Source of the DNA: Psammoneis japonica
Lineage: Eukaryota
Reading direction: 5' to 3'
Assembly: GCA_008632985.1 (NCBI GenBank)
Contig: QPGO01000003.1
Span: 372,001-436,000, forward strand
Length of the DNA: 64,000 nt
The notes under the pieces are model-generated. The model made no database searches. It was not told the origin of the DNA and saw only the letters and a program-made list of their open reading frames with translations. The translations under genes and the position numbers were made by a program. Every line of letters begins with the position of its first letter. Within the stretch, counting starts at the first letter, position 1. Of the stretch, positions 38,076-60,500 are shown piece by piece.

Positions 38076-38261
38076 TGTAACAGAGTGTTAAAATTATCGT
38101 CATCAAAAATGACTTAGGTTTCACACTCTTTGAGGGCTTATTTCATCAGGGCTTATTTTTCAATCGTTTTTCAACGCAGAACAGTGACCCGAAGAGTCAC
38201 ATGACAACGTCGTTCTTCACGACCTCGCAACTAGCTTCACATTTACACGCAGCACACAGCC

Positions 38262-40692: not shown

Positions 40693-41250
40693 TCACTTCC
40701 TAATCTTCCACCAGGCCTTGGTAGTTTTCTCCGCTACTTGTTCCACTACAGCGGCCTCAGGAAATAACCTCTCGGAAGCAAAATACACTGCCACAAGGGC
40801 GACAATCAAAAACATGAGGAATCCAAAGATAAAGGGTTGAAGATCGTTCTCGTTGGATTCCTTCATGACGACGAGGGACCGTGGGCTCGAAGATACCACC
40901 GCCACTTCTTCTTCTTGAGAGTCGTCGGTGCTGTTGGAGTCCTGTTCATGATCGCTATCATCGAGAGAAAAGCTCGCATCCGCCGCGTCCGGAGCATCCA
41001 ATTGACGCAGCACAATGTCCTTGGGGGGGCTTGTCGTAGTAGTAGTAGTAGTAGTAGTAGTCTTGGTTTCAATTTCTTTTGTCTCCTTGTACCAAAACCA
41101 CGTGTGTTGGAGGATACGAGCAGCACTGTCACGCAACTTTTGATCGTTTGCAATCTTGCGAGCCGCCGCCATGTACTTGGATGTGAGAGCGGCTGCCGTG
41201 ACAAAGACACAACACGAGGTTGCAACTAGAGCGGATTGATTGCCCCTCAT
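40693..41250 (-). CDS. Hypothetical membrane protein (185 aa): two hydrophobic segments, loose IQ-like motif, poly-Thr, acidic linker
   Basis: ATG-initiated ORF with normal composition; AARILQHTW; FIFGFLMFLIVALVAVYF. Confidence 0.6.
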   Translation of the reverse strand: MRGNQSALVATSCCVFVTAAALTSKYMAAARKIANDQKLRDSAARILQHTWFWYKETKEIETKTTTTTTTTTTSPPKDIVLRQLDAPDAADASFSLDDSDHEQDSNSTDDSQEEEVAVVSSSPRSLVVMKESNENDLQPFIFGFLMFLIVALVAVYFASERLFPEAAVVEQVAEKTTKAWWKIRK

Positions 41251-42287
41251 GATTAATCTTTTTGTTTTTTAAAAGCAAGAAATGAGAAGGTGTACAGTAC
41301 AACAATGGGGTGGAGATACTATGGTTGAACTGCTATGATCTTGAATCTGTGATCGCTCTTTTCACCTGCCGCCAAAAAAAAAGCGTTCCGAGGCGATGAC
41401 GCAACTGCCACGTCACCGTTTCGGCACCAACTCACATCTTTGACTCGTCGGACTAAAAAAGTCTCGCACCGCCGGTGCTACAGCATAAAAAAAAAGGTTG
41501 TCAAACAATGGACCTTTCTTCATTTCAAGATTTTTGCCTGGGTGGGGACAGACTGTACGTCAAGCGGAAATTGGGCAGAATTTCTTGTTGGAACTCTCCC
41601 TGTGGACATCAGACCGCGCCCCGCAGCTTCTGGTGCTTTTCCAAAGATGCGAGCACAAATTCAAAAATCACCAACGGCGAAAATGGCACTCATCTCTGCG
41701 ATGCCAATTTTGAAGACGATCGGCTCCACACTGCCAACAACCCCCATCCCATGACTGACATGTGTGTGTTGTGATGTCATGGTGAGAAAAATCATTGTGT
41801 TGAGTTGAGTTTGTGCATCGTGTGGTGCAGTGTCGTGTTTTGATGGTTTTGGGGGTTGTTGCATGCCCTTGTCTTGCTCACAGTCATTTGTCTCGCATCA
41901 TGTTGTAGAGCAAGGCATTGACACTCCATTGTTCACAGTGTTGAAGCTTTCGTGAGTGATGAGAATTGAGTTGTGGATTGTGGGAGTGTCCTCAGTGACC
42001 AGCACTGCCGATCATTCGTGGACGCAGCAGGAGCCGCTTCTCATCTGCTGTTTGCTGTGCTCGATGGTTTGCAATGTCCAGAGTGTCATCAGAAACAGAG
42101 TGCAATGAGGTGCAAAGGGCATTGGGGTGATTCTCAGGTGCCAGTGTCGCAGTGACTAGATTGAGATTGTGAGGAGAGGAGACTCTCAACGTTCCCTCTT
42201 CTGAATCACTTGAGCGACGTTTTCATTGCTGACGTGAGTCTTTGCAATGGCAAGTCACAATGACCGCAATGATGATTTGACAATCTT

Positions 42288-42705
42288 TGCACTCCCTCTC
42301 ATTGTGTCTTGTGAGTTTAATCAACCAATCAGATCAATTTTGGCTGACTCCGGTTGCTGTTGTTCATGAAGAGAAATTGCCCTTCACACTCACCAACCCA
42401 TGACCAAAGGACGTAAGGCTTCAAGTGCCTCGGCCGTCAAGGGCTTGGTGAGACAGTCTGCCAGTTGATCCTTTGCATCAATGACATGCATTGAGATCTC
42501 CTTCCTTGTGACACAGTCACGGAAGTGATGCAACTTGACATTTGAGTGCTTGGTGCGTGGTCTGCACTTGTGTGCACGTGCCATCTCCAGAGCACCGCTG
42601 TTGTCCTCAAACACTTGACAATGAATCTTGGGCTGCAACATCTTGACAGGGAATCCATGCCACTTGAGTTCTTTCAGCATTTCCATCAAGGGTGTGGCTT
42701 CTTGG
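42288..42705 (-). mobile_element. Ty1/copia pol 3' end (RNase H C-terminus) with polypurine tract and probable LTR start
   Basis: EATPLMEMLKEL...VFEDNSGALEMA..KCRPRTKH.NVKLHHFRDCV...DQLADCLTKPL...MGW*. GAGAGGGAG at 42300-42292 is followed by TGCA. Confidence 0.85.
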
Positions 42706-42724
42706 AAAGCTGAATTGTTTGGAG

Positions 42725-43090
42725 AAGTGTGCCAGAAGCAACATTGCACACATCACCCACCAGTGCACACGGTTTGCGGCAGATCCCAAGGTTGAGCACG
42801 GCAAGGCCATGCGATGGCTGGGCCGACACTTGTGCAAGACCAGAGACAAGGGCACTGTCCTGAAGCCTGCAAAAGGGAAGGATTTGGAAGTGTGTGTGGA
42901 CGCAGATTTTAGTGGAAATTGGGATCCACGAGAAGCAGGCTAAGATCGCGACACAGCAAGATCGCAACACGGTTGTGTCGTTGCTTGCACGGGTTGTCCC
43001 ATGCTGTGGAAATCTCAGCTTCAGACTGAGACAGCCTCAAGCAGTGCTGAGTCTGAACACACTGGCTTGTCACATGCTTTACGAGAAGCC
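42725..43090 (+). mobile_element. Ty1/copia RT end and RNase H start, inverted relative to 42288-42705
   Basis: RSNIAHITHQCTRFAADPKVEHGKAMRWLGRHL..T.DKG...LEVCVDADFSGNW...WKSQLQTETASSSAESEHTGLSHALREA. Confidence 0.85.
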
Positions 43091-43612
43091 CACACAACAA
43101 GTTTGGACGACATTTGTGCTGTTGATTTGTTTGGTTCATGTGTGTTTGCAGTGAGTGTGATCAATCTTGTGCTCATCCTTGTTGCCAGATGTGTTGGAGC
43201 CACTTTTGTGTCATTTGCATGCAATGGCTGGACTTGGAACTCAACAATGACACCTGGATTGGCCCCCACACAACAAGTTTGGATGATGTTTGTGCATTTA
43301 ATTTGTTTGGTTCACACATGCATTTGCAGTGAGCGTGATCAATCTCACGCTCATGCTTGTTGCTGGACGCGTTGGTGCCACTTCCACATCGTTTGCACAC
43401 GATGCCTCTGCTTGGAACTCAACAATGCCTGGATTGGCTTTTGCACAACAAGTTTGGATGACATTTGTGCATTTGATTTGTTTGGTTCATGTGTGTTTGC
43501 AGTGAGCGCGATCAATCTTGTGCTCATCCTTGTTGTTGCATGTGTTGGAGCTGCTTTCATGTCATTTGTGCATGATGCCTTGGCTTGGAACTCAACAACA
43601 ATGCCCGGATTT
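43091..43612 (+). repeat. Tandem repeat, about 175-bp unit x3
   Basis: caacaagtttgga at 43095, 43271 and 43446; ttggaactcaacaa near the end of each unit. Confidence 0.92.
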
Positions 43613-43654
43613 AAAAAAAAAAAAAGACAGATTGAGTCAGCCAAGATCTGTGAA

Positions 43655-43925
43655 GATCCAAGATGTCGAGGGAACCATGTCGCACTCAGCATTGCTGCCA
43701 CCGCAGATGTTTCTCATCTCTCGTGGACTGGCAGCCACAACATTCTCAGTGTCATTTTGGCACTCTCTCACTCCAACCCAAGATGTCGAGGGAACCATGA
43801 CATTTCTCATCTCTCGTGGACTGGCAGCCACAGCATTCTCAGCATCATTTTGGCATTGTTCTCACTCCAACCCATTCCGATTTTGTCATTTTAGCACTGT
43901 TCTCACTCCAACCCATTCCGATTTG
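43655..43925 (+). repeat. Short nested duplications
   Basis: ccaagatgtcgagggaaccatg...tctcatctctcgtggactggcagccaca x2 and ctcactccaaccca x3. Confidence 0.85.
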
Positions 43926-45719
43926 CCTCCACAACAGTGAAAGCCTGTCAATCTACAATTGCTCTCATGCAAAAGCCCATCAATCTGCAATGTTGTCAGT
44001 GTCACTGCAGCGTCATTCTTGCTCTCACCCACTCCAATTTGCTGCCCCAGTGGCCTTGAACAATGGCAAAAGCCTGTCAACATGGGTGAACGACAATGAT
44101 GTCATGTGCTTGATTGCTGCATTGTGGGCATTCTGTCGCCACATCATCTGTGCATGCCAATGAACCACACATTCAGCATCTTCTTTTCCCCAGCTGTCCA
44201 CAACAAGAATCTTCCCACCCGCAGCGCCACACCCCACAAGATCCAAGTCTTGACACATGAGACAACCACCAACTCAGTTCCCCAACCCGCTTGCATGTCA
44301 GCTCCCAGCGGTGCCAGGAATGCAGCATCGTTTGCACATTTTGGCACACACTGCACTGAACAGAGCTAGAATTCGGGGCGCAGCATTCCCACTCTCGTCA
44401 GCATGCCAACATGCATGCTCCGCATTCCACATCCTTCTCTTTTGGCGGAACCACATCAGAAACCAGCTTGATGTCCCACTTTAGAATTGAGCGCAAAAAT
44501 GCTGCCTTCTGATCAAGCTCCTGCAATGAAGGAGCAAAATTCCCAGCACAGAATTTCTCATGGTGTTGAACGGTGAAAACAAGTCCAAATGCACAGGGGC
44601 TGCGCTTGTTTTGGAGGTTGGTGAAGGACGAGAACTTTGATTTTTTGTCTTGCCCCCCAGGGAGTTGCTTCAACAGCCCTTCATTCCCATTGTGAGTGGC
44701 AGTTCCTGCCCTTGCAACCACGTGTTGCAAGGCATGTCATGTGAAAAGAACATGGTGAACACTGTCATTCCAATGATGGCTGCAAGCAAAAAAATTGAGA
44801 AATGATTTCACCCCAAGCAAATTCCACTTGACGTGCAGTTTGTCCGTCTAACTTGAAATGAAGACCAGGCCTGCGGGGATCATTGACCACTTGTCTTTCT
44901 TTTTGGGTGTGGGTGTGTGCCATTGCATGCTACATTGCCTGCATGCACGCACCGGTGCTGCAGGGCCCTGCTGCCAGGGCCAGCATTGTGGCAGCTGAGT
45001 GGCGTGGCCACCGCACCAGTGACGCGGATGACTGTTGTGTTTGATGTCTCATGCCATTTTGGGGGCTGTGGCGAGGTGCACGGACACTTTTTTTTCCAAT
45101 TTATCACCACAATGGCGCATCACACAAACTCACTTGTTGTTTGATGTGTTTTCCCCAATGTGACTGTTTTGTGTGGAATTCATGATAAATTGTCTTTGTT
45201 TGCAACTGCACGCATTTTTCAACATGCCACGCCGGCAATCCCAATTTTTCAGAACTTTCGAGCTCTCCTGAAAAACCGTTCCACGCACCCGTCGCAGGGA
45301 ATTTGTCGATTTTTTAGGATGTCCCCACAACCTCTCATGTCCTCAATGATCATTCTGTGAATCCGAAGAATTCATCTGTGCTGAACAACCCATCCCATTC
45401 CAAAATCTGAGGGACACACTTTCAAACTCAGATGGGCTGCCCGACTGCCCAACTGCCTGACCCCCCCAACTGCCCGACTGCTGGACCGACACGAAAAAGT
45501 CTGCAATCACCAACCACTGAGTGGTCAATGAAAGGTCCATGGAGTGGCAGGGTGGGGGGGGGGGGGGTTCTCACTCCTGCACACTGAAATTTATGTTTGT
45601 TGCACGTGGTGTTGACTTTGAGGGGTGACAGTTCAGAGATCACTGTGACACCCCATTTTGCCAATTTGCCAATGGTCATTGGTCATTTTGGCAACTGATT
45701 TTTGCTGAACCAAGTGGCG

Positions 45720-45960
45720 AACCAAAGCTCAATTTGTCCCAACTGGTTGGGACCTTTTCTCTGTTGGCGACCATGCCAGCATTGATGAGAGCCATGGTGA
45801 TGCCAACATTGCCACTTCCCCTGCTGCCACAGTTGATGGTGAACCAAAGCTCAATTTGTCCCCACTGGTTGGGACCTTTTCTCTGTTGGTGACCATGCCA
45901 GCATTGATGAGAGCCATGGTGAAGCCAATGTTGCCACTTCCCCTGCTGCTGCAGTTGATG
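45720..45960 (+). repeat. About 122-bp tandem duplication
   Basis: aaccaaagctcaatttgtccc...gggaccttttctctgttgg.gaccatgccagcattgatgagagccatggtga...gccacttcccctgctgc x2. Confidence 0.85.
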
Positions 45961-46034
45961 GCGCTGCTCCCAATGCAGCCAGTGAATGCTTCTGTTTCCC
46001 CACTCCTCCCATCAGCTCCAAACAAAATTTCAGG

Positions 46035-47091
46035 CACTTGCACTGCTCCTTGCCAGTGTTTCTGCATGAGAAATCCATTTTCAATGACAGCAGCCATTTG
46101 CAGAGAAGTTCAATGACAAATGATTTTAAACTCAGCAACCAAGAGCAATCTGCTCCAGTTGCCCGAGGTGAGCTGGACACCAGCCGCATGCTTGAGCACA
46201 TCTCTGAAATTTGCCACTGGCCACAGGCAAAGTGCCAAGGCCATTTGTTGCACAAGGGCAAGTGTGGCCAGGGCCAGCACCAGATTGGTTTTTTGATGAG
46301 CAAGCTGAGACAGGCGCGGCTCCTGCCGTTCATCTCTGTGATCCCAAAACATGTTCGTCCACTCCAGTGACACGACAGCAGCTCACAAGCAACCGCGACC
46401 AAGGTGGCGGTGCTTTGTTGAAAGACATGGCTGGTGTGGCACCCAATGAGGGAATTGAGCATGGATTCAAACTCTCAGCGCCATTCCCAAGAAGAGCTTG
46501 GTGAAAAAAAATCTCCACTGGGAAGATGACTTGGACGAGCCCCATTTCCATTGAAGCACAGCCACTTGCACTGCTCCTTGCCAGTGTTTCTACATGAGAA
46601 ATCCATTTTCAAGAACCGTGGCCATTTGCAGAGAAGTTCAATGACAAATGGTTTTAAACTCAGTGACCAAGAGCAATCTGCTCCAGTTGCTCGAGGTGAG
46701 CTGGACACCGGCCGCATGCTTGAGCGCATCTCTGAAATTTGCCACTGGCCACAGGCAAAGTGCCAAGGCCATTTGTTGCACAAGGGCGAGTGTGGCCATG
46801 GCCAGCACCAGATTGGTTTTTTGATGAGCAAGCTGAGACAGGCGTGGCTCCTGCTGTTCATCTCTGTGATCCCAAAACATGTTTGTCCACTCCAGCGACA
46901 TGACAGCCGCTCACAATGGCAACCAAGGTGATGGTGCTTTGTTGAAAGACATGGCTGGTGTGGCACCCAATGAGGGAATTGAGCTTGGATTCAAACTCTC
47001 AATGCCATCCATCCCCAAGAAGAGCTCGGTGAAAAAAAAATCTCCACTGGGAAGATGACTTGGACGAGCCCCATTTCCATTGAAGCACAGC
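46035..47091 (+). repeat. 528-bp tandem duplication (46035-46562 and 46563-47091)
   Basis: cacttgcactgctccttgccagtgtttct...ccatttccattgaagcacag at both units; near-identical ORF translations. Confidence 0.92.
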
Positions 47092-48399
47092 ACTGCACAA
47101 CAACCACATGCAGTTCAAACACAAGCTGGACAAAGACATTGAAGTGGGCTCATCCAAGAACAACAGTTCATCCCCAGCAGCAGGCTCCACAGCCAACATT
47201 GTTGCATCCTCTGCTTTGGCAGACTCATCCACTGCTGGTTCAACTCTTTTTTCCAAGGTGCCAGGAGATCTGCTGGGAAGATGACTTTGACTCCTGGGCT
47301 TTGAAGTTGGTTCTTGCAGTTGGTGTGTCCTCCCTGCTAAAATGAACAGAGGAAGAGTCATTGGCAAAGCTGTTGTCCTCATCCAACAGACATGAAGCAT
47401 CCTCTCTGGCCACTGTTGCACTTGCTGATCCATCTGTCTCATCCCATTGGAAAGGAGTTGGGTGCTCTGATTGGTCGAATGCACCAATTTGTCTGATGAC
47501 TCCATGTTTGTCTTGATGTTTGGGATTGAGGCCGGCCAAATCTGTTGCCACTTGTCCATGATCCAAGAGGAGAATTGCAATCGGGGTCCACCACAGGAGG
47601 AGAAACAACATGCACTGTGTTTGAGCACAAATGATGATGCAAAGAAGGACCGTGGTAAATTGTTGACCCAGTGGATTTCACCTCAGTCCAGAGAATCTGT
47701 GTCCCCGCACTGGTGCAGATGTCAAGCTCACATTTTGGCAAAGTGTGGCCAGAAACTGCTCGTTCTTTGCTGGAGTGTCCTTTGATCAGTGTGTTCATTG
47801 CACCCAATGATTTGAGTGTCACTGGGTTGCTTGCGTTTCCCAACTGCCACTTTGTCAGAGCTGACTCACTTCATTTTGCCATCAGAGAGAAAGTTCTGAC
47901 AGCCACCCGACAGCATCCAGCACCAAGATTTGCATCGGAAGTTGGGGGCAGAGATGCTTCTGCCAACACACAGCCCAGACAGTTGAGCAAGTCGAGGAGG
48001 CTCAGCACTCAGCACTCAGCACCCACATCAAGGTTCTTCAAGCGACTCTTCATCTCTTGGAGGACCGACATTCAAGTCAAGTGAGCCCACATCACCTCTT
48101 GCGGAATCAGTGCAGAACATGGATTTGATGGTGTTGCAAGCTTTCAGTGCTTGACACTTTACAACAGGCTCTTGGTGCTCGAGCCAGGCATGAGGAATGC
48201 CAGCAATGGACTTCACAGAGGCATGCATTCTGCATTGTTGACCAGTGCACACAACACCACAACACACTCAGGCACAAGAGCACAAAGCCAGCGAAGCAAG
48301 ACGCCACAAAACCAACCACGCCAGCCCGCATTCCTGATCTTCCGTAGACACTGCATGCTGGGAACCCCAACAAGATCCCTTGAACTGCTTCTCCCATCA

Positions 48400-51300
48400 A
48401 GATGAGCGACACCAATTGGGGCAGTTAGAGGTGTTTCCAGATGCACCTCCCATCAGCAAAGAACTGCAATCACATTGACCACCCCACCCTGTGGACCCGG
48501 CCCATCCGACACCACCACCAACTTCCTGCACAGTCACAGGTTGTGCACCATCAAGCATTTTGTTGACTTCACTTCCCTGCCCCTCATTGCAGTCTTCAAC
48601 ATGATGGGGCACAAACCACTCAAGAACCTTGGAGCTGAGGCAGTGCGCATTCATGCCTTTGGCACACACTCCAAAGACCACCTCTCTGATGAGGACGGTG
48701 CCATCGATGTCACCCATTTTGACCCGGACAAATTCCATGCTCTCAGGCAACAACATGCACGAACCATCCGCGTCACACTCCGTGATGCCTCAAATGAATG
48801 GCGTGCATCCAGCAGCAACACTCCATTGCCAACTGCCAGTGTGCCAGTGCCCTCTCCTTCCACCTCTCATGTGAACGCCTCCACCCCTGCACCCACTGCA
48901 GCCATGGACACCTCCACCATGATCAATGCTGTGCTGACCAAGGATGTGCCCAATGCCCTCACCATGGCTGCACCATCAAATCCACCACCCATTCACAATT
49001 CCCCCCACCGGCATGCACCCCCACCTGCTCCGGGTGTGTCCTTTGGAGGTGCGCACACCAATCCCACCCTGGACACTCTCCACTCCCACCACCCTTCACT
49101 CCCTGACATGCAACATCCTGGCAATGCAGGGGAGTGTCCCAGAGATGATGTTTCTGCATCCGGATCCAACAGCACCATGGCATCCTGCATCGACACCGGA
49201 CACCATCACTTCCCATGCAACCCACAGCTGCATCATTCCAAAGAATGTTGCCACGATGTGCACAAGCGTCATGGCATGTCAGTCAATCAAGGCAGCATGG
49301 GATGGAGAAGGGAAGTCATCCCCAAACTTCAAATCTGCACTTGAAGGACACTGGATGATGCAACAAGCAAGCCACACTGCGGATCCCAAGTTCCTTCAAT
49401 TGCACTGCAAACACAGTGAATGCATTCTTGAGTTGATGCCATCACTTCAACCTCACATCACATTGGCCCAACTGGAAATGGACCGTGAGTGTGTGTGTGG
49501 GAGTCTGGCATCAGCTTGCTGCAAAGGAGTGGGCAAACAATTCCTTGCACCCCACACGAAGGACAGAGACGGCTTCAAAGCATGGCGGGCCTTCCTCAAA
49601 CACCACAAAGGTGACAGGACCGCGGATCTGCTTGAGTCCAACTGGGAAGATGAGATCAACACTTGACACACACCCAACATTGCACCAGTGGCATGACTGC
49701 CTTCATCAACAACTGCAAAACAGCCTTCATGGAGATCAACCACATCAACACAGAAGCAGCCACTCACAATGGCATGCCCTTGCACTCCACCTGCCAATGG
49801 ACATCAGATGAAGCACACAAGTCCCGTCTCCTTGCAAACCCACACACAGAATTGACCAGAGATGTTGTTGCTCAGCGAGGTTCACTGCCCTGAAAACATG
49901 CTCATGCACACCTTTGCAAGTGTGCGAAGTCACACAACAAGTGTCGTTCAAGCATCAGCCAACACTGTGCTGAACGGGCAAGCCAAGATCCCTCAGACAC
50001 CAACAGCAACACTGAGAGTGCATTCCAAGCCATCCTTGACTCACACATTTGCTGGCAGATGCACTCGCAATGGCAACAACACACCTGGCAAACTTGACAT
50101 CCCTCCTGTGATCCTCAAACTGCTCTCCAATGAAGGTGAAGCCATTTGCCAATGCGACAAGATTGTGGATTGCATGGCTTCTCAAGCCAAGGACAAAGAT
50201 GCAGCAAATGACAAGCCGGATGACAACCCTGGTCACAAACTGTCACTCCCTCAACAACACCCTGCCTGCAAAGCCCAAACTGTCACAACTGTCCCTGTTG
50301 GTGCCACTGACAATGCGGAACACCCAAATGACATCCATTGATTCCACTGATGCGCATGCCTCCACCAAAGATGATGAGGACACTGCTGTCCATTCCTTGC
50401 TGAAGGTGTCTCAAGACCTGGCTGGCCTCTTCTGCTCTGTCAACATGACCCAATCTGTCATCACCGGTGCACCAGTCCATGAAGTGCATGCCTTGCATCT
50501 CGGATGGGGGGCGGGTGCAGGTGTCTTTGGCACTGGATGGCATTTGTTTGGTGATGCCGGATGCAAAGCCAATCTGGTTGGCTTTGACAAAACCCCAGCA
50601 TGCAGAGACAGACTGGACATCACCAGTGGCATCACCGCCGTCAACCTCACCGACGGTGCAGTTGTTCTCCTGTGCATGCATGAAGGTGTGTCCAACCCTG
50701 TGGCATCTTTCTCCCTCATCTCTGAGTGCCAATGTCAAAAAGCTGGATGCATCATGGACTCTGTCACAAACCACCACCTCAGTGCCCAAGGCCAATGTGG
50801 CATGGTTCATTGCCCTGGATGGCATTGTCATTCCCTTCACCAACCAAGGGACCCTCATGACCTTCAACCACTGCATGCCTGCGGCCAACAAGAAACTGCG
50901 CACCCTCAAACCCACCCCGATCACCACGGAAGGCCCCAGGGACCCAGCTGCTCACTGTGCCGCAGCACCACCCCACAAACTCAATGTCATTGCGCCAGGG
51001 CTGCCATTCAATGCCATTGCCATCAACCATGACACAAGGGGGGATGGTGCCAGCCAAGAAAAAGGAGCCAACAATGCAGCCACAGTGTCAGCCAACAATG
51101 CACTCCAGGAAGAAGACATGTCCTCCATGCACGCATTGGTCTCTCATGACAAGGATGATGACAACTTGTCCATTTGTGCTGATGATGCCTCAGAACACAG
51201 CTCAACCCCTGGCTCCTTTCCCAAACTCAACACACACGATGACAAGTCCACTGATTCTCCTGAAGACACTGTGAGCAATGTGCCACTTGTGACAAGGAGA

Positions 51301-53930
51301 AAGCCGCCCATCAGTGGACCCAACAAAGAACCGGCGACATGAGTGCTCCCCACAATGATGACATGATGCCTGCCTCAGAGGTGATGGATGCACAACAAGA
51401 ACCCAACTCACCCCGGGGTGATGAAGCCAATGATTGCAACATGACAGTTGAACACTTGTGGCACCCAGTCAACCACACACTGCACCCATGCTGCATTGAC
51501 AAAGCACTGCAACCAGACACCACACTGGAGGCACCACTGCCATCTGATGGCAAGTTTCATGATTGCCCCACCAATCTTGACAATGCCCTTGTTCACCCCC
51601 TCATTGGAGTCGAACTGCAGTTCATGGACAAATTGGTCGGACACCATGAAATGCCCCAACACAACACCAATGCATGTGTGAGCAGGAAACAACGGGTGCC
51701 ACACTGCCTGTGGAACCAATGTTCTGCTTCAACAATGCAGTGGAACACATCCCGAAGGAATGGCAAAAGAGGGCTTTTCACCTGACCATGGACTGCACCC
51801 ATGCAGCAACTGTGAAAGCGATGGAGATCAACAAATGCTTGGACAGACTCAAAGACAACGAATTGTTTGGCCACAATGCACCTTTTGACTTGCATGCACA
51901 TGCCACCCATGCCACCAAGAAAGCCCACTTGGAAGGGGAGCTCAAAGCACTGCACCCTCTGTTCATGTGCCAACCTCAAGAAGTGGTCAAACGAACCCCA
52001 GAGGCCACCACCCAACTGGCCAAGTCACACTTCCACATGCCTTTGCAGCAACACTTCAAGGCTCGACATCCTCAACTGAGTTGCATGCATCTCAAAGAAA
52101 TGGTGGCAACCGACACCTTCTTCTCTGTGGTGTGAAGAGCCTCTCTCTGGATGCACCTGTGCAGAGGTTTGTTGGGAATCTCATCACACATGATCAACTT
52201 CTGCCACCCCATGCACACAGAATCCGAGTTCCTGGCAACATGTGAAGATTTCATTGGTGGAGCACCACGCATGCTCTGTGGGGACAATGCCAAGGCCCAG
52301 CAATCCAAAGCCATTGTGGACATCAACCAAAAATTCATGATTGGTGATCAATGCACCAAACCCCACCATCCACAACAAAATCCAGCCAAACTCCATGCTC
52401 CATGCTGCCAAGTTCATCAAGACCCACTCCCAAACAGCATCAGACTGGACCAGTGCACCAAGTGTGGTTTGGCTGGAATGCTGCACATGTGTGGCAGACG
52501 TCCACAACATGATGGCCAATGAAACCATTGGGTGGTCTGCTCCCACCAAAGTCAGGCACGGTGACACCCCTGATGCATCAGCATTCATGGATTTCCACTT
52601 TTCCCAAAAGATCCTGCACCTGGACACAAACCTGCCCTTCCCACACAGCAGAGAATTGCTGGGACACTGGTCAGGCATCAAGCACAACATGGGAGATGCA
52701 CTGATGCACAAGATGATGGACCATCAAGTGCAACGTGGGAGATGCATTGACGCACAAGATGATGGACCGGTGCACTTGGGCTTCTTCCTTTCCAGAATGA
52801 ATGACCTCCAGGTCTGTGCTGCAGATGTTGGTGACACCTTCCTCAAAGGTGCCATCTGCAAGAAGTGCTGTGTCATTGCAGGCCCAGAATTTGGTGAGCT
52901 CCAGGGATGCATCCTCTCATCATCCAGAAAGTTCTGTGTGGCTTGCATGCCTCCAGTGCCCGCTTCCATGAAAACTTGTCCACTTGCCTCCACAAACTTG
53001 GTTTCTGACCATCCAAGCCCAGTGCCAATTTTTGGATCAAACGTGCCAGCGACCACTGCGAGCACATCACCACCTTTGTTGATGATGTTGCCATCTTTTC
53101 CAAGCACCCCATGGCCATCATTGATGAGTTGCACAAGCATTGTACACTCAAAGGTGCAGGAACTGCGGAATGTCACTTGGGGGGGCATGTCATTTGCCCA
53201 AGTGATGCATGGAAGAATGACGGAGTTAGCACCACACTGTCAGCCAAGACTTCCATCAAAAACACTGTGTCCAAAGTTGAGGGCATGTTTGATGCTAACC
53301 TGAGACTCCACAAGACACCCATGTGCAAACTGCACCATCCAGAGCTTGATGAGAGTCCACCATGCAACCCCGATGATGCACCCCAATTCTGCAGCCTGAT
53401 TGGCAGTGCCAACTGGGCTGTTTTTCTTGGATGCATGCACATCCACAGTGCCACTGCAACTCTGGCACGCTGCTCCATGGACCCTCACAAAGGCCACCTG
53501 CAAGCTGCAAGATGCATCTTCTGACACCTCAAAAAGTTCCCCAAAGGTCAAGCAATCATTGACCCATTGCATCCAGAGCTGCCAGATGCTGAAATGCCTG
53601 ACACCACCAATTGGAAGGAGATGCACCCCAATGCCAAAGAGGAATTGCCAACTGGTGCCCCTGAGCCCCTGGGAAAACCAGCATCCATGACCTTCTGGGT
53701 GGACGTCGACCAAGCACATGACAAGGTCACACACCAATCTGTCTCCAGCAACAAAATGTTTGTGAAGTTGACCTGTGAACAAATGACAAAGGATGGTCAA
53801 AACATCAATGCATGGATCAGAGTCAGTGGCAGCCCACATGGCAGTTGAACAAATGATCAAGTGGAGGTGTGACTTGCACATGCTTGGAGCACCTTTGCCT
53901 GCTGCAGCATTGTGTTGCGGACAAACTGAA
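48400..53930 (+). mobile_element. Decayed Ty1/copia (CoDi-like) LTR retrotransposon: gag-PR-IN-RT-RH, with an internal deletion near 52770
   Basis: gag DRDGFKAWRAFL; PR region ANLVGFD, HEGV, SLISECQ; IN ATTQLAK, VATDTFFS, DNAKAQ, PHHPQQNPA, GDTPDAS; RT ADVGDTFL, IAGPEFG, LCGL, FVDD, HPELDESP, SLIGSANW; RH VDVDQAHDKVT, SMHGSESVAA. LTRs were not recognised. Confidence 0.9.
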
Positions 53931-54299
53931 GGAGATGACAACAACAAACCTGAGTTTGCCAGAATTGAGAGGAAACAGCAAGTGTCTCCACACTGGTTCC
54001 TCCATGCCAAACAAAAGACAGCTGTTTTTCACTCCAGCAACCTTCCCAGACCAGAGCTCATGAGCATGGGAGAGGGGCGAGGATCCCACAGTGGTGGGGC
54101 ACAGTTTTGGGTGTCGCACTTGGAGATGGCAGCTTTTTTAAAGATTTTCAGGTCTCAAAAGTGTTTTTTGGAGCTTGTTTTCTCTTTCTTTGTTCCAAAA
54201 AGTCCAACTCAGGCACATTTTCTGACAACAATCATCATCTCCCAACAACAACAGATCAAAATTAGCACAACTCAAAAATGACAAGCAATGAAGTGGTGA

Positions 54300-57200
54300 G
54301 CCATGCTGCCCTGCAAAAGAACTCCGGAACGCCAAATTTGTGCAGAAGGAGAACCAGGGCTCCAGCAGAAATGCCAAAAAAGTCCGGTCACAAAGAACAC
54401 AGCTTGAGCGGCATGGTCCACAGACACCAAGGCTTTGGCTGCAGGTGAGTTTTGTTGAAATGAGAGAGAAAGGCAGTGTTGGAAAGGTGTTGAAGGCAGG
54501 GTGCATTGTCACCTGCTCTGTCAACAGGACCAGGGTGGCAGTCATGCAGCAACATGGTGCGGTGCTTGCATTGATGTTTGTGTTGTTGCCAGAGGAGCTT
54601 GGCAGCAGGCTTGACAGATGCAGCAGATCCTTTGCACTGCCAAAACATGGTGCCAAGGTTGAAGTGCACTCCAGTTGCGTGCGTTTGTGAAGGTCGTGCA
54701 TGTTGGTGGCAGCAACATTGTGGACGATGCTGCTGGTGAGCTTGAGGCCAGTGTTGATGATGGGACCTTGGAGCTTTTTGTGCATTGCAAGTGAATCTGC
54801 AAAATCCTTTGGGAAATGCATGTGCCATGCAATGGGGCTTGGATTGTGTTTGATGTGGTTGTGACCGGAGGGGAAGCATCGCAATTTTGCAGCTCAGGGC
54901 ACTGCAGTTTCAAAGTTGGTGTGGGGATGATGACTCCCCCCAGCACCATGCCTGGAGGCATCACAGCATCCATGAACTGTGGGTGGCAGTGGCACCAGAG
55001 CTCCCTGAAATCATTCAAGATGGAGTGCACATTGTTGGTGACCATGAGGCACATCCATGCATCTGGGGTGGTGTGGCACAGTGCTTCTTGCAATTTGGAG
55101 AACAGGCCTCTGGCACTGGGCAAGGTGACAGTGAGTGACTGCAGCTCTCCCACCAGCTTGTGGCAATGCATTTGTGTTTGCAAGGGCAGTCCTGGTGGAG
55201 AGTCTTAGCAAGTTTTGACCTGTGGCATGGGGTGAGTCTGAGGGTCATTGACAGTGCATTGATGAGCCACCCTGACGCTTCCTTTTGTGTGGACCATGCA
55301 GCTTCTCCAGCCTTCAGCTTCTTAACCAAGACTGGTGCCTTGCATGCCACATTGTCCTGATTGTCTGGAGGACAAAGGATGTTGTCAATGGCATGCAAGA
55401 GGATGCAGTGGATGTTGCACTTTTCCTCTGTGGACCCCTTTGCCACACCCATGAAGTTGTCAACATGTGTGTCGGTGCAGGAGAGGCAATGATGATGGTG
55501 CAGGTTTAGATGTGGGTCCAGTGTTGCAGGCACTGGCACTGCCAATCCTGGTGGCAGCATGCACTTGGGGACCCAGCTGCTTGCCAGTTGCTCCAGGGGA
55601 TGGGGCGGCACTGTTTCGGCCCGCACCAAGGAGGTGTTGGCAAGATCCATGATCATTTCCATTGCAGTGCCAGCAAAAGCTGGTGGTGAGTTGGTCCATC
55701 CCACAGGAAGGCAGGTGGGCACAGCCACCAACAATGGATTGCCAGGCAGGTTTGGAAACACAACTCCAAGCAAAATGTGCTTGGTCAGGATTTGGCTGGA
55801 GGTGGCAGAAGCCGTCAGCCAAATCAACCTTCACAAGGTAGACCCAGCCTTGTGCAGGGTCAGCAAGTGAGATGCATCACAAGAGGTGGTCAAATGCGTG
55901 CCCAAACTGCATCGCTTCAACCAGGGCATTTGGCTGGGTGGCGTTGTTGGTGCTGCAGAAGGTGCAACAGACGACAGGTCATGGGTGGTGGCCATGCTGC
56001 AGGATGACCACAATGGGGCTAAGTCGAAGTCCCAATGCATCTTGGACTTCGGCATGCAGCAGACAACTCAAAAACCTTCCTCATTGTAATTGGTCATTCC
56101 TTGTGCAAGAACTCTGTGTGCTTGCAAGTGGACTTGTGCCCCCCCCCTCTGTCCAAGCTTGCCACTGGCTCCTCTTGGCTCCATGGTGCACACGCAATGG
56201 CAACTGGGACTCCAAGTTGTTTGCAGCCCTGCAGCACCCTGTGAGCCGGGTGCTGGTGGGCTTTGTGCAATGGTCCCCAGTCTCCCCTGCTGCTGCAATG
56301 ACACAACAAGTGGCTGAGTCCTCCAAGACACAGCAGATTGGTGTCATGACTGACATGCTCACCCAGTTTGTCAACTTTTGTGCTGAACTTGCAATGGCCT
56401 GTTTACGCGCAGCAAGGTGGCTTTGCAAGCATGTGGAACACTGCACCTGCAGCACTGTCAATGCACAGGTTGACAGCTGCAAAGGCTGTCAAACCTGAGT
56501 CCCTGAACTCAGGCCCTGGGAAGACTTGGCCGCTTGGGCCAAACTTGTCCAAAACTGTGGCAAGTGCTGCTCATTGTGCACTTGACACAAGTGCACAAGC
56601 TTGACCACTCCTTGCTCACCAAAGGCCTGTCAAGGCATCTTGCTGAGGTCTGAGGCACATTGCCAGGCCACTGCATCAAGTTGCTGCTGATGCTGCTCAG
56701 CTGTGAGGCCATCGATGGCCTCTGCCACTGGGCACACCTGCTGAGCTGCAGTGCTTGCCCGTTCCGATCGGGAAGGTCCAAGCTCACCTTGTGGTTGCAG
56801 AACTGGATGAGGGCCATGTTGGGAGGCTGCAGCAAAGTCAGGTGGTCTGGGAGGGGGCGGATGGCTGCCACTTGACTTGCATTGGTGGCAGCCCCAAACA
56901 CTCCAGTGAAGGCTTGCTTGGGTGCAAGGGCCACCAGCAGTGGCAAGTGGGCACACCCAAAGGGGATGTGCATGGTGAGCCGGGTGTGCACTTTGATGGT
57001 GCTCACATCATTGTGGCCCGGTGGGGGCACTGGGTCCTTGGGATCGGCGGTGATTGCAGCGACCATGGCTGCATCGTCGAGGACCCTCGTGCCAGCTGGA
57101 GCCAGACCTGCTTCCTCCTGTGGGAATGGGACTGTGGAGCACTGATTCAGTGCTAGATCGCCTGTGATCACGCAGGTGTTTCCATCCCACGGCTGGGGTG

Positions 57201-57390
57201 GTCCCACCACCGTTGTGGGGTGACGGGAGACTCGATGACAGACTTGATGGATGACGCCCACGTCCTGGGTTTGCCGCGCGACAGTGGCGCGACAGCGCGA
57301 GGGGGACGTTGTGCTCAGAGGCGGCGTTGATTCGCTCGGTGAGTGGTTGTGGGCCATGACGGGAAGGTCCTTGGATGCGGGCCGCAAAGC
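54300..57390 (-). mobile_element. Decayed DIRS/Ngaro-like retrotransposon RT-RNase H region (tyrosine recombinase gene not seen)
   Basis: HKSTCKHTEFLHKE, KVDLADGFC, GVVFP..LPVGWTNSPPAF, HVDNF (=YVDDF), LLHAIDNIL.P, KKLKAGEAAW.TQK..GW, LVGELQSL..LPSARGLFS.LQEAL and GPIINTGLKL. Confidence 0.72.
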
Positions 57391-57552
57391 AGTGGCCTAT
57401 CTTTCAACTTGTGCTAGCTAGGACGTAGAACTGGAGAAGCGGTGTAAGTCGAGAATTCCTATTTTTGGCTTTTAATCTGTGACAGGTAAAAGTTCCAATA
57501 TTTCAGAGGTATTTTCCCGTCAAATCAAGCGTTTAACATTTTTCCCGTCAAA

Positions 57553-60500
57553 TCAGCGTTTACCACCCTTTTTCGTCCAGAACATGTTCGGGTTCAGTTT
57601 CTTCTTTTGCTGTGTCTGGTGCTTCTTATCCTTCTGAGGCGGCGGCATCTTCTTCTCGGCCTTCGTCCCCCGTACAAACATTACTCGTTTCCTTGGTTCT
57701 CTGCGCGGGGGCTTCGTGTTGTGTTCAGAGGGGGGTTTTCTTTTGATGCTCGATTTTAGAGGGGGGCTAGCGGGCACGGCAGTGGCCAAATTGCGCCTTT
57801 GGACTTGCGCCAATTGTTCCTGAAGAGCCGCAACTTCACGTCGAAGTGCATCTGCATCGTCTGCTTCCTTCGCGGCGTTAATGGCTCCTTTTTCTCCTTC
57901 CGTTTCTTTCGAACCAACGTCAAACTGTGCCTCTATCTCCGACACTTCCTCACGCAGCACATCCACGGCTGCATCTTTTAGTCCGCGACGGCCTTGCCTT
58001 GCTGCCTCCCTTCTCAAACCACCAGTATCTTCTGCTTCCTTCGCGGCGTTAATGACTCCTTTTTCTTCTTCTGTTTCTTTCGAACCAACGTCAAACTGTG
58101 CCTTTATCTCCGACACTTCCTCACGCAGTACATCCACGTCTGCATATTTTAGACCGCGACGGCCTTGCCCTGCTGCCTCCCTTCGCAAATCAGCAACTTC
58201 TTGTCGAAGCGAAGCCGTTGCAAGAGCTTCTTGATAGTAATTCCTCTGCTGCACCATTTGTTGCTGCAAATCATTCAGTTCGGCACGCAAGCTGGCAATT
58301 CCGTCGTTATCACCGGATTGAGACAGTCCGCTTTTCACCGTATTCAAGCGAATCAGCTGTTCCATCATTGCCTCCATGCGGGCCAAACGAGCATCAACGT
58401 CAGGATCCGCAGACTCTTCCTCGTCCTCCTCCTCGTTAACCTCCGTAGGCGGTTCATCGTTGCGTTCAAAAGGTACTATTGCGCGACTTTCCGAAACCTC
58501 ACTCTTCGCAGAAATGAAAAACTCGTCATAACTGTCGCTTGGCCTGGGTTGTTCCTCTCTTTGTTCTGGGGGAGTGAGCCTAGATTCAAGTTGCGAAACG
58601 AGGAGACGGTCTTGTTTAGCCTCGACGGCATCGTCCTCATCATCAAGAGGTGCTTCGTCTCTTCGCAGGGGCGAGTGACTCCTCGAAGGCAACTGGTGAG
58701 AATTTGATGCCGGAATATCATCATGGCCAACGCTACACGTGCTGGCTTCATCGCGTTCACTCTCTTCCTCCTCGCTGACACTATCGAGCCGTTGCAATGT
58801 AGAACGACTTTTAGCTGACATTGGTGACATAAAGCCAAGACTCTCGTCATCAGCATTATCCTGCAATGCGATCGGAAGAGACGTTCGAGCCGAATCAAAC
58901 ACGCTGATGCTTCCAGAACCTTCTCCCCGGATCGCTGTCGAATGCTTTGCATTCGAATCAAATAAGTTTGCAGAATGAAACACATCGTCTTCGCCTGAGG
59001 CCTCCTTAGTCAAGGCACGATCGGCATCAACTGTTTCCGCGTGTTCCTTTATCAGCTCGCAAGCTTGTTTGTAGCTAATATTCCCTCGTTTCAGCTGTCG
59101 GAAAATGTCCAGGACAACTTCATCTATAGGAGATAAATTCGACGGTAATGGCGGTGGGTCGAGCGCAACAAAGGTTGCTCGAGCACGGGCTTCAACTAGC
59201 CAGGTAGGGCCGCCCTCTTGCGAGGAAATCTCCAACTCGTCTGAGAATAACCATGATGACCTTGTCGCTAACAAGGTTGACTGCCGCGAATTTAGCGGGA
59301 CGTCCATGCTTCTCTTGAAGAGCGCGGAGGACATCCACGGCACGGTTTCGAGCGCGTCAGACAATTCCCTTTCTTTCCTCAACCCCCCCCTCCTTTTCTC
59401 AGACGTGTCTCTTGCCTCAAAAACCATTTCTCCAAATGTTGTATAACCACTTTTGCTTCCATCTTTATTAAGGCCTTTTGCCCAAATCACCGATTCAAGA
59501 TTACCACATATACAACTTATCGCATTGTGCATCCGTGTCAAAGATTTACGATGATGAAATTCCCCGAGGACTCGGAACCAGGCGAGCACTTCGCCCTTTT
59601 GTGACTGAGCAGAACCGTGAAGGTGCATTTCCTGTGGATTCGTTCCCTGCTGTTCGGGGTCAGAAATACTCTCCCACACACGGCTTGGGCGTGTTCCAAG
59701 GTGTGAGCCTTCATCTCCGCTTTCAAACAGCAATGCGTTGGATTGGTCAAGGCGCAACGGCGTTGCAATTACCGATGGCGATTCATCTGCGTCTTCTTTC
59801 TTCCCCTTTAGAGGAGTCGAAACGGTATTCCTCTCTCTCCTTATGATTGTCAATGCCACGCCGTTATGGCCTTCGTCTTCCACCGATGAAGATATAACAG
59901 CTTCTGTATTCAGGCGAACTTGCCATCGTAGAGACGGCAACAGGTTACCATGATGGTCTCTCTTCACTCGAATGAGAATGACACGATACGTGGTTGCAAT
60001 TACGTGCGTTACGACCCCCGGTTCCATCTGAAGTACTTCCGACGCGATGTGAACTTCCCTTTCAAGAAATTTGCCCTTTTTTGCTTTGACTGGATACCTC
60101 TTAAGCAGATGTATGCTCCTGGCTGTGACCAAGTCGAACGGCATCAACACGTTCTTCAGCCCAAAAACATATGGAAGTCGGAGCTTCCGAGCAGGACGAT
60201 AGCGTTTCTCCATAACGTTGACACTCTTGGCAACGTCGTGTATGGACCCGGTGAAATGAGCAAGCGCATCGAGTACACCGACGAGGGGCTTTATGACAAT
60301 GCCTATAGCGCCAACACCTAGTCCCTGAGCAAAGCCAACAGCCCCGCCATCAACTGCGCCCTTGTAAGGCGAAACGAAAATTCCTGAAGTTCCCGATATA
60401 ATTCCAAGCACAACATCTTCGATTGGCTTCGTTACCATCCTCTTCGCACTGTTTGATCCCTTTTTCTTCCATCTCCTATTCAAGTTCTTAGCCTGCGAAA

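Follow-up and report, generated by a model that had tools for sequence, protein, structure and literature searches.

What has removed the TA dinucleotide from long stretches of this locus, and do the neighbouring bases decide which TAs are lost and what replaces them? In the window, by which we mean the whole 64-kb stretch of DNA that was analysed, almost all TA and most CG in dead transposon DNA have been converted to TG or CA. The converted DNA forms four TA-depleted blocks with sharp borders, 25,357 bp in total, in which 70 TAs remain out of about 1,000 expected; the 38,643 bp outside the blocks hold 1,532. The blocks and one sub-block are as follows (in NTAN contexts, mixed means YTAY or RTAR).

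1470 to 5559, no strand: Block A, 9 TAs in 4,090 bp, TA survival 0.055 and CG survival 0.34.
21992 to 26561, no strand: Block B, 19 TAs in 4,570 bp (13 YTAR, 6 mixed, 0 RTAY).
37048 to 38077, no strand: Block C, 2 TAs in 1,030 bp, between two divergent ORFs.
41487 to 57153, no strand: Block D, 40 TAs in 15.7 kb, TA-depleted, CG-poor and CA/TG-rich, holding the studied interval.
48431 to 53140, no strand: TA-free sub-block of Block D, 0 TA in 4,710 bp versus about 187 expected from the outside density, CG survival 0.29.

Block D occupies the entire space separating two flanking ORFs. When counted per 2 kb, its observed/expected ratios were 0.00-0.07 for TA, 0.16-0.44 for CG, 1.59-2.11 for CA and 1.69-2.47 for TG. 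Among the NA dinucleotides only TA was depleted inside the blocks, with AA, CA and GA unchanged or raised, and G+C was nearly constant (0.50-0.53 versus 0.47-0.49). The losses of 933 TA and 968 CG in the blocks are balanced by gains of 1,006 TG and 1,098 CA, and the stop codons have become 623 TGA versus 52 TAA and TAG together. A segment of Block B (23635-23795) could be aligned with TA-normal DNA outside the block (21324-21494), and the differences are TA to TG and CG to TG. Over the 1,102 contigs of run X1 that aligned to the window, the totals were A>G 152, T>C 185, C>T 156 and G>A 170, with 25-45 of each transversion. Two proteins flanking the blocks fall in Oomycota-rich clusters, which is a taxon lead only.

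Homology searches identified the following parts of a retroelement in Block D.

51650 to 52519, plus strand: integrase-like part of a decayed Ty1/Copia-type polyprotein (tblastn of full-length homologs), with an in-frame TGA at 52133-52135.
52341 to 53300, plus strand: reverse-transcriptase part in its first frame (tblastn), which then shifts to the frame of 53009 onwards.
53009 to 53845, plus strand: reverse transcriptase/RNase H part, 279 codons with one TGA and no Tyr.
42294 to 42734, minus strand: Copia C-terminal fragment (tblastn, E down to 5e-6), containing two of the TGT examples of the first-pass annotation.

The part at 53009..53845 gave 1,763 phmmer matches at E<=1e-3 against 1.84 billion representatives (best E=1.3e-67, 51% identity). 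With the full-length homologs, the integrase precedes the reverse transcriptase and RNase H on the plus strand at 51.6-53.9 kb, which is the Ty1/Copia order. The carrier at 50.4-54 kb is a remnant of a Ty1/Copia-type retrotransposon, and at least one block is Copia-type. Self-BLAST at E<=1e-5 gave no long direct repeat around 48-57 kb that could represent long terminal repeats, and the element may be truncated. At at least 80% likeness, the stretch of 48.2-57 kb is single copy in run X1, where the depth over 48431..53140 was 56-84 versus a baseline of about 55. In run X2, from the same sample, the flanking genes were covered and there was almost no depth in the block.

Pfam searches on 69 and 113 stop-free ORFs of the blocks returned no transposon domain, not even for the reverse-transcriptase piece. 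Since this piece has 1,763 phmmer matches, Pfam blanks for Blocks A-C say little. A 317-aa ORF of Block C had no homolog at E<=1e-3 and no Pfam match, and Pfam, tblastn and ORF homolog searches detected no recognisable retroelement genes in Blocks A-C and the left of Block D. The long false ORFs that result from the stop codon bias, together with the escape from Pfam, mean that such blocks will be misannotated.

The coding decay in Block D is real and is not an adaptation. In 696 aligned codons no Tyr was left where 30 columns have a Tyr consensus, and Cys (32 versus 2) and His (51 versus 21) were in excess; together with the in-frame TGAs and the frameshift, this shows decay. Tyr was gone even at columns that are 90-99% Tyr in the homologs (52937, 53525 and 53624). 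Among the best 150 homologs, six were Tyr-poor (from Logan, ENA and JGI/IMG), in which 28 of the 62 Tyr-consensus columns read Cys, 19 His and 3 Tyr, while five control homologs kept Tyr at 62 of 71. On these protein sequences, Tyr loss is not confined to this window. A metagenome scan for relatives yielded a single weak locus, which was compositionally normal.

It had been proposed that surviving TAs are mostly YTAR, and the block counts agree. The 70 block TAs comprise 40 YTAR, 28 mixed and 2 RTAY, compared to 302 YTAR (20%), 791 mixed and 439 RTAY (29%) among the 1,532 outside (chi2 61.9, p=3.6e-14). The interval 42450-55830 alone has 31 TAs (20 YTAR, 10 mixed and 1 RTAY). All survivors listed in the first-pass annotation are present, with their TAs at 44482, 46127, 53227, 53296, 55323 and 56020, as is the exception listed there (53143). 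The bias also held against the base composition of the blocks themselves (YTAR p=1.3e-8, RTAY p=1.1e-6) and against the contexts expected from fresh transitions of block CA and TG (chi2=50). Not a single ATAC, ATAG, ATAT, CTAT or GTAT survived in the blocks. Directly 3' of the A, 51% of the survivors have A versus 22% outside, and 4% have T versus 26%; one base further on, 55% have A versus 27%. TTTAAA was kept in both copies of a 528-bp tandem duplicate (46127 and 46655). Some present TAs may be non-survivors: in run X1, position 44482 is G in 8 contigs of other copies and position 44368 is G in 2 contigs.

The rate of loss depends on the base that follows the adenine, and equal rates across NTAN contexts are contradicted by the data. 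In a survival fit with one parameter per base, the rate of A loss in TpA by 3' base was T 3.35 > C 1.76 > G 1.20 > A 0.47 (likelihood-ratio chi2 88.7 on 3 df), where the ancestral NTAN and 4-mer make-up was taken from the gene-rich DNA outside and not from unmutated copies, which could distort this fit and the direction fit below. Each of the 16 NTAN classes fell within Poisson noise of the model, which also predicted, independently, the product accumulating in each context (r=0.87). A separate fit to the product direction (TG or CA) only gave log-weights relative to A of T 3.66, C 2.21 and G 2.06, which is the same order (pseudo-LRT 26.9). An alternative in which the rate is set by the base two positions ahead of the A would fit survival equally well, but predicts opposite product directions. 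The proposed preference for TAY thus stands as a graded bias that extends to A-tracts, with an effect of about 3-fold for Y versus R and about 7-fold for T versus A, and fails as a rule. The rarity of YTAY to YCAY changes that it entailed was not borne out either (2 of 5 Tyr sites; 189 of 489 Y..Y gains).

As TpA is its own complement, A to G with a 3' order of T>C>G>A and T to C with a 5' order of A>G>C>T are the same data. A to G and T to C on the other strand are therefore indistinguishable here, and the analogy to TadA made in the first-pass annotation is one of two readings. The 5' T fits TadA and a 3' C is tolerated, but the best 3' base is T, which leaves an adenine deaminase as a candidate only.

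In the other reading, which we regard as a tentative possibility, thymine would be attacked by TET/JBP-type oxidation or hypermodification of the T in TpA of silenced DNA. The products would be 5-hydroxymethyluracil, 5-formyluracil or a base-J-like nucleotide that mispairs with G and gives T to C, with a flank rule of 5' A > G >= C > T. In the telomere repeats of kinetoplastids, base J is found where a T precedes an A, and 5-formyluracil causes A:T to G:C transitions, although T to C by thymine modification is inefficient in known systems. All context counts and fits are equally compatible with such an attack, and the absence of strand clustering, described below, is in keeping with a symmetric mark that, like 5mCpG, decays slowly and one site at a time. 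In dinoflagellates, transposons are reported to be silenced by thymine hydroxylation (PMC11572971). Base-resolution maps of Breviolum reportedly show 5hmU without a sequence motif (PMC11071213), which counts against this reading.

A finer rule had been suggested for coding DNA, namely that the base before an old Tyr codon predicts whether it now reads Cys or His. We inferred old Tyr codons from the columns in which 144 homologs have a Tyr consensus (n>=5, Y>=40%). The resulting 16 codons in the decayed Copia element read 3 Cys and 2 His after a pyrimidine and 4 Cys and 7 His after a purine, so that the rule is a weak tendency at best (Fisher p=0.60, n=16). A stricter cut (n>=8, Y>=50%) left 2 Cys and 2 His after Y, and 3 Cys and 6 His after R. 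That CAY should follow purines is not implied by the proposed reaction in the first place, because RTAY carries TAY on both strands and about 50:50 Cys:His is predicted there. The codon-level data are neutral on the flank model, with a log-likelihood gain over 50:50 of about 0.5 at the 16 Tyr sites (worked by hand). At 18 conserved Ile columns we observed ATG three times and ACA never, where the model expects mostly ACA for ATA followed by A. Of the ten example strings given for the rule, three do align to Tyr (53057, 53063 and 53811). Three others align to A/C (42515), I/L/M (42455) and V (52202), the first two of these occurring as reverse complement only, and the remaining four had no in-frame placement in the aligned columns. 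Old Arg (CGN) is about as frequent a source of TGY and CAY codons as old Tyr.

Repeats inside Block D show when the changes occurred and on which strands.

43089 to 43611, no strand: tandem array of three copies, each about 176 bp long, distinguished by TG-versus-CA doublets.
46031 to 47091, no strand: tandem pair of 528-bp copies that are 92.7% alike.

In these repeats the same site could end up as TG in one copy but as CA in its counterpart. A 352-bp alignment within the first repeat contained 16 TG~CA doublets (transitions:transversions 56:11). The 528-bp copies differ at 39 columns (30 substitutions and 9 gaps), of which 11 are CG versus TG or CA; 2 TG~CA doublets and one TA versus TG were also found. 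In contrast, a duplicate outside the blocks (13068-15591 and 18568-21070; 2,542 bp, 85.5%) has normal TA, 2 doublets and transitions:transversions of 163:149. The difference between 16 doublets in 352 bp and 2 in 2,542 bp shows action at the DNA level after duplication. TG and CA products were interleaved along the blocks (runs tests, z=0.03 to 1.63), as were the Cys and His replacements of Tyr along the element, for example TGT CAC at 53171-53176. Strand-coordinated patches, for which CATGTGTG versus CACACATG in one tandem repeat had been a candidate, were not upheld by the runs tests.

This interleaving, and the doublets between tandem copies inside one block, make it quite improbable that the copies were born mutated, with an ADAR-like or APOBEC-like deaminase editing the RNA or the minus-strand cDNA during retrotransposition. 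The clearest block is indeed a retrotransposon, and over 48-54 kb A and C are enriched on the plus strand. Moreover, minus-strand-equivalent deamination is in excess in the Copia element, where old Arg codons read CAN 13 times versus TGN 4 times (p=0.049) and old Tyr codons read His 9 times versus Cys 7 times, and this leaves room for a cDNA-stage component. Blocks A-C and the left of Block D share the signature without recognisable retroelement genes, though, and ADAR favours other neighbours (5' U about as much as A, and 3' G) than the exclusive 5' T and best 3' T seen here.

CG loss is, at least partly, a second process that is separate from TA loss. In all six sub-blocks TA survival was 0-0.10 and CG survival 0.22-0.40, with a log-survival ratio of 1.7 to >5.6 between the two losses (rho=0.26, p=0.07). 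CG loss was quicker where the C is preceded by A or T. The process is plausibly a putative 5-methylcytosine deamination, CpG to TpG/CpA, and would account for about half of the excess TG and CA and about half of the new Cys and His codons.

Taken as a whole, we consider the best explanation, with about an even chance of being correct, to be a TpA-directed transition process that acts on DNA by adenine deamination in silenced transposon blocks. The blocks would consist of defunct transposon DNA, presumably silenced and in at least one case of Copia type, in which the process has run almost to completion. Each of the two adenines of TpA, one per strand, would be converted to G independently, yielding TG, or CA via the other strand. 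The rate for an adenine would be set by the following base (T > C >= G > A), with further protection by an A-run. TpA would persist only where both strands present a slow context (T-run, TA, A-run), and because both strands need it, the leftovers would be YTAR, above all TTTA/TAAA. The same rates would bias which product appears without deciding it, and the CpG to TpG/CpA process would act in the same blocks. The single most likely chemistry would be that of a DNA-acting deaminase that is drawn to silenced DNA and deaminates adenine, with thymine modification fitting the data equally.

A related and rather doubtful version is a defence mutator that mirrors RIP, in which an enzyme at silenced transposons would rewrite both TpA and CpG to TpG/CpA, possibly a single CDA-fold deaminase of dual specificity, acting on A after T and on C before G. 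If true, such a mutator would remove Tyr codons, TAA and TAG stops, and TATA-like and AT-rich signals at constant G+C, and the flank rule of 3' T > C >= G > A with A-tract protection would be its recognition fingerprint.

Three further explanations fare worse. By selection, the elements could have come to avoid UpA and CpG and so escape host nucleases or sensors, as do many other retroelements and RNA viruses; the latter are likewise depleted in these two dinucleotides and enriched in CpA and UpG. We find selection very unlikely, as the depletion is extreme (TA o/e 0.00-0.07), Tyr was lost at nearly invariant Tyr columns of a frame with stops and a frameshift, and tandem copies differ by TG~CA doublets. 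Modified heterochromatin bases could have been miscalled with the TAs and CGs really present, since nanopore base-calling can turn 6mA into G and 5mC into T. Such an artefact is extremely unlikely: of the sampled words, 96% occur in independent k=31 contigs of run X1, at a word depth of about 56-fold, a 9,414-base X1 contig over 48518-57931 differs at 5 letters, an agreement out of reach for noisy long reads, and six homologous proteins from other data sources share the Tyr loss. Just as remote is a YTAR excess by chance, or one made of new TAs without flank preference, which two listed TAs that differ from other repeat copies might suggest, but which the three context comparisons above, the same bias in all three blocks with at least 9 TAs and the TTTAAA in both tandem copies contradict at this sample size.

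The mutator of this window may be an undescribed genome-defence mutator. A literature search found no description of TpA-directed transposon hypermutation and returned classical RIP and unrelated work. Such TpA removal would point to a naturally occurring enzyme able to edit adenine (or thymine) in double-stranded chromosomal DNA. For this putative enzyme the sequence offers no handle other than the flank dependence, which provides a motif for in vitro testing and should make converted DNA recognisable elsewhere by the loss of ATAN/NTAT and the retention of TTTA/TAAA.

Among known systems, RIP of Neurospora and other Ascomycota is similar in being a dinucleotide-specific transition hypermutation of mobile or repeated DNA with sharp borders, which affects already duplicated DNA on both strands and disrupts its reading frames. 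However, RIP converts CpA to TpA and makes DNA AT-rich and TpA-rich, whereas the change here is the formal reverse, TpA to CpA/TpG, with G+C barely moved. Accordingly, the block ratios have the opposite sign (TpA 0.00-0.07, CpA/TpG 1.6-2.5). RIP involves cytosine methyltransferase-like genes of the RID/DIM-2 type, is premeiotic in timing, and is triggered by repeats that span several hundred bp and share at least about 80% identity. Here, the 2,542-bp duplicate at 85.5% is untouched and the stretch of 48.2-57 kb, single-copy by present-day copy number, is fully converted. RIP hosts are fungal, and the host here is stramenopile-like, as a lead only.

CpG decay by 5mC deamination, including the CpG-directed 'RIP-like' hypermutation of basidiomycetes, resembles the conversion of CG to TG/CA in the same blocks, which are presumed silenced repeats and to which this conversion is confined. 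It explains only about half of the TG/CA excess and none of the TA loss. ADAR hyper-editing and APOBEC3 likewise are deaminase-driven transition hypermutation of mobile elements, but they act on single strands, in clusters and with other neighbour preferences. Strand-coordinated A to G clusters, a trait of ADAR, did not occur here (z=0.03 to 1.63, with Cys and His interleaved). Thymine hypermodification, as 5hmU in dinoflagellates or base J in kinetoplastids, is comparable in that T within repeats carries a mark of silencing (PMC11572971). Old chemical work on dinoflagellates points to a TpA/TpC preference, but thymine hypermodification is not known to erase TpA from genomes.

The tRNA adenosine deaminases TadA and ADAT2-ADAT3 are similar in having a T (U) directly 5' of the target A and accepting a 3' pyrimidine. 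Their tRNA targets carry U33-A34 in every case, and the TadA motif is U-A-C in the tRNA-Arg loop. The T 5' of the edited A is matched here, TA only being depleted, and a 3' C ranks above G and A, yet T is highest in both fits. Published accounts describe TadA-derived enzymes that act on DNA and are convertible to cytosine deaminases. The natural substrates of TadA and ADAT are RNA loops, while here both strands of chromosomal DNA are changed without clustering, a 3' T is preferred over a 3' C and A-tracts are protected, and no gene of this kind turned up. Known transition hypermutation of transposons, by RIP, APOBEC or 5mC decay, is C to T. Near-saturating TpA removal via A:T to G:C, in transposon blocks only, would therefore be a new defence specificity.

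Four sharply bordered stretches of the window are almost devoid of TpA:

1470–5559: block A, sharp borders, TpA nearly absent
21992–26561: block B, sharp borders, TpA nearly absent
37048–38077: block C, sharp borders, TpA nearly absent
41487–57153: block D, sharp borders, TpA nearly absent

Together the blocks span 25,357 bp. Across 42–56 kb, in block D, the observed/expected ratio (o/e) of TpA was 0.00–0.07, and the 4,710 bp of 48431–53140 contained no TA where about 187 were expected. CpG was reduced to roughly a quarter to two-fifths in the blocks, and CpA and TpG stood at 1.6–2.5 times expectation. With the density outside the blocks as yardstick, the blocks lack 933 TAs and 968 CGs and have a surplus of 1,006 TGs and 1,098 CAs; the losses of TA and CG thus balance the gains of TG and CA. 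The stop codons in the blocks comprised 623 TGA versus 33 TAA and 19 TAG, and because nearly all are TGA, long false ORFs occur in all six frames (in block D, 69 reach 100 aa or more). An (AGT)8 microsatellite is located at 41037–41060, in TA-normal DNA immediately beyond the left edge of block D.

Independent contigs of a public sequencing run (X1) contained 96% of the window's sampled words and matched 9.4 kb of block D with five differences, which rules out an assembly quirk as the source of the block sequence. In this run the left part of block D (41.5–48 kb) is repetitive, with a depth of up to about 10,000 compared to a baseline of ~55, and the part containing the Copia element is present in a single copy at ≥80% likeness. 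In a second run of the same sample (X2), checked over 39500–59499, depth was found on the flanking genes (39.5–41.5 kb and 57.4–59.5 kb) and almost none on block D.

A Pfam search of the block ORFs gave no match, even for the real retrotransposon genes in block D. The plus strand of 51.6–53.9 kb encodes a decayed Ty1/Copia-type polyprotein with the domain order integrase, reverse transcriptase, RNase H. Against 1.84 billion representatives, a 279-codon piece of it matched 1,763 relatives at E≤1e-3, with 51% identity in the best match, and full-length relatives align to the element in the expected order. None of the 696 aligned codons of the window encodes Tyr, while the homologue consensus has Tyr at 30 columns; Cys was found 32 times versus 2 in the consensus, His 51 versus 21 and Arg 21 versus 45. 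The element is in decay, and the loss of Tyr, the in-frame TGAs and one frameshift rule out adaptation as a reading of its changes. His codons (CAC/CAT) are also present at 53438, 53105 and 53186, where homologues carry Asp or Asn (Asp in 134 of 139 homologues at 53438). These require a transversion of G or A to C, so that processes acting on TA and CG do not explain them.

Duplicated sequences were informative on the level at which the changes arose. Tandem copies in block D showed 16 TG~CA doublets (TG in one copy, CA in the other) per 352 aligned bp and 56 transitions to 11 transversions, whereas a duplicate outside the blocks showed 2 doublets per 2,542 bp and a ratio of 163:149. Such a doublet is expected if one ancestral TA (or CG) was resolved twice, independently. 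In addition, a 170-bp stretch of block B aligns to a TA-normal stretch outside, with direct TA to TG and CG to TG changes. TG and CA follow one another at random along the blocks (z=0.03 to 1.63 in runs tests), so strand-coordinated patches as left by single-strand deaminases are absent. The changes arose on DNA, after duplication and on both strands. Repeats in the surroundings are:

9844–11940 (minus strand): ORF of about 690 aa, PT disordered repeats, internal tandem repeats
13068–15591 and 18568–21070: 2.5-kb inverted duplication with 85.5% identity, ORF-bearing, normal TA, transitions to transversions about 1
28450–30525 (plus strand): ORF of about 690 aa, PT disordered repeats, internal tandem repeats
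57856–58195: 169-bp tandem duplication within a 1,144-aa ORF

The inverted duplication at 13–21 kb forms a built-in control against duplication alone attracting the process. Since this 85% duplicate is untouched and an element that is now single copy is fully converted, duplication alone does not direct the process. At 57856–58195, contigs of X1 and X2 have a form that skips 172 bases, indicating either variation in copy number or collapse of the repeat. The window appears to be eukaryotic, and carries long, intron-poor ORFs and one gene with introns; the nearest Atlas clusters of two flanking proteins are commonest in Oomycota, which is a lead only.

The first-pass annotation had proposed that the surviving TAs are mostly YTAR. 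All seven sites it named are present, and among the 70 TAs in the blocks we found 40 YTAR, 28 YTAY or RTAR and 2 RTAY, compared to 302, 791 and 439, respectively, of the 1,532 TAs outside (chi2 61.9, p=3.6e-14). Within the interval on which the proposal was based, the 31 TAs split into 20, 10 and 1. The bias persisted when the reference was the base composition of the blocks themselves (p=1.3e-8 for YTAR, 1.1e-6 for RTAY) or the contexts from fresh transitions out of CA/TG (chi2 50), and was present separately in blocks A, B and D. The survivor rule is therefore real and strong. As anticipated, NTAN contexts in the blocks were lost at unequal rates: a model in which the adenine loss rate on each strand is set by the 3′ neighbour alone (hazards T 3.35, C 1.76, G 1.20, A 0.47) fitted all 16 NTAN classes, with a likelihood-ratio chi2 of 88.7 (3 df) over a single rate. 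The second base after the A was also A on 55% of survivor strands versus 27% outside, which indicates that protection is wider than one base. YTAR is a coarse summary of a motif consisting of a T-run, TA and an A-run (TTTA/TAAA; TTAA 15, TTAG 12, CTAA 9).

Survival alone is ambiguous, as the base after the A and the base two before it fit equally well and imply opposite product directions. Direction was therefore fitted on its own, from how far N-TG-N and N-CA-N exceed expectation in each context, with a separate CpG term. The log-weights for the base after the A, relative to A, were C 2.21, G 2.06 and T 3.66 (pseudo-LRT 26.9), which ranks the bases as the survival hazards do, and the TG share per context was predicted from these hazards with r=0.87. 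The suggested preference of an A to G change for TAY is thus retained as a graded quantitative bias in two independent fits, but not as a strict rule. TG~CA doublets were found in every flank class (R..Y 9, R..R 4, Y..Y 4, Y..R 3), so the flanks bias the product without deciding it.

It had also been proposed that the base preceding an old Tyr codon predicts its fate, Cys after pyrimidines and His after purines. Using 144 Tyr-normal homologues (six Tyr-poor ones were removed beforehand), 16 Tyr-consensus columns (n≥5, Y≥40%) are now Cys or His in the window: with a pyrimidine in front, 3 became Cys and 2 His, and with a purine in front, 4 became Cys and 7 His (Fisher p=0.60; 2:2 and 3:6 at a strict cut). 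The trend has the claimed sign, but is indistinguishable from 50:50. Moreover, the proposed mechanism does not predict His after purines, because RTAY has TAY on both strands. Of the ten example codons, only three, at 53057, 53063 and 53811, fall on Tyr columns; the two 'gac TGT' examples occur on the minus strand only, near 42450–42518, at columns A/C and I/L/M, and the column matched by 'ttc TGC' at 52202 is V. The codon rule is not demonstrated, and it rested largely on misassigned examples. By homologue residue, the Cys codons of the window correspond to Tyr (7) and Arg (5) and the His codons to His (15), Arg (13) and Tyr (10), so that old Tyr makes up about half of the source and Arg CGN the rest.

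Four further observations are grouped under DISCREPANCIES: Ile columns, Arg strand skew, the Tyr third base and non-survivor TAs. At 18 conserved Ile columns we found ATG three times and ACA not once, while the model expects mostly ACA for ATA before A. In the Copia element, minus-strand-equivalent changes were commoner (Arg to CAN 13 versus Arg to TGN 4, p=0.049). At the 16 Tyr sites the third codon base was a better guide to the outcome than the base before the codon: T gave Cys in 6/7 and C gave His in 8/9 (p=0.009); four of six TGT precede G, so the third-base T may be a converted CpG, explaining part of the trend. Old Tyr codons are now almost exclusively TGT or CAC, as at 53171–53176. 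Finally, two present TAs are unlike other repeat copies in the X1 contigs, showing that not all present TAs are survivors.

Survival in the blocks, relative to the density outside, was 0–0.10 for TA and 0.22–0.40 for CG. In the TA-free stretch 48431–53140 CG survival was ordinary (0.29), which argues for the two losses being at least partly separate; window by window they correlated weakly (rho 0.26, p=0.07). CpG loss follows its own flank rule, about twice as fast with A or T before the C as with C or G, and is still seen between young duplicates. It reads as a second process, plausibly methylcytosine decay, and a single enzyme could still account for both losses.

The TpA changes result from a transition process that is DNA-level, site-by-site, strand-independent, confined to the blocks and aimed at TpA, with a preference that extends over at least two to three flanking bases. 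Our first choice, to which we give roughly even credence, combines this process with a DNA-acting deaminase of the CDA fold that would deaminate the adenine of TpA in the blocks. Substrates of the tRNA deaminase carry U33-A34, resembling the absolute need for a 5′ T at the block TpA. TadA-derived enzymes are reported to act on DNA and also on cytosine. The analogy with TadA is a lead. A thymine-centred process, TET/JBP-type oxidation of the T in TpA, accounts for all the counts just as well, since TpA is self-complementary; we consider it possible but rather unlikely. Editing during retrotransposition would place the changes in the copying of the element; it is contradicted by specific results and we regard it as improbable. 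Dinucleotide avoidance through selection, a sequencing artefact and chance are all contradicted.

The decay is not private to the window. Among the best 150 Copia homologues, six (P0032, P0040, P0044, P0050, P0112 and P0141), from three data sources (Logan, ENA and JGI/IMG), are Tyr-poor. Of their 62 Tyr-consensus columns, 47 carry Cys or His and 3 carry Tyr, whereas five control homologues kept Tyr at 62 of 71, suggesting the same decay in other elements or organisms. The phenomenon deserves genome-wide follow-up. Searches for a TpA-directed process among 8.4 million papers and preprints, available in part, brought up nothing beyond classical RIP and unrelated studies, and on these the underlying phenomenon appears to be undescribed. 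RIP is the nearest known system and the same kind of process. The defining features of RIP that were tested were absent from the window, and the arrow is opposite: RIP converts CpA to TpA, whereas in the blocks TpA was converted to CpA or TpG.
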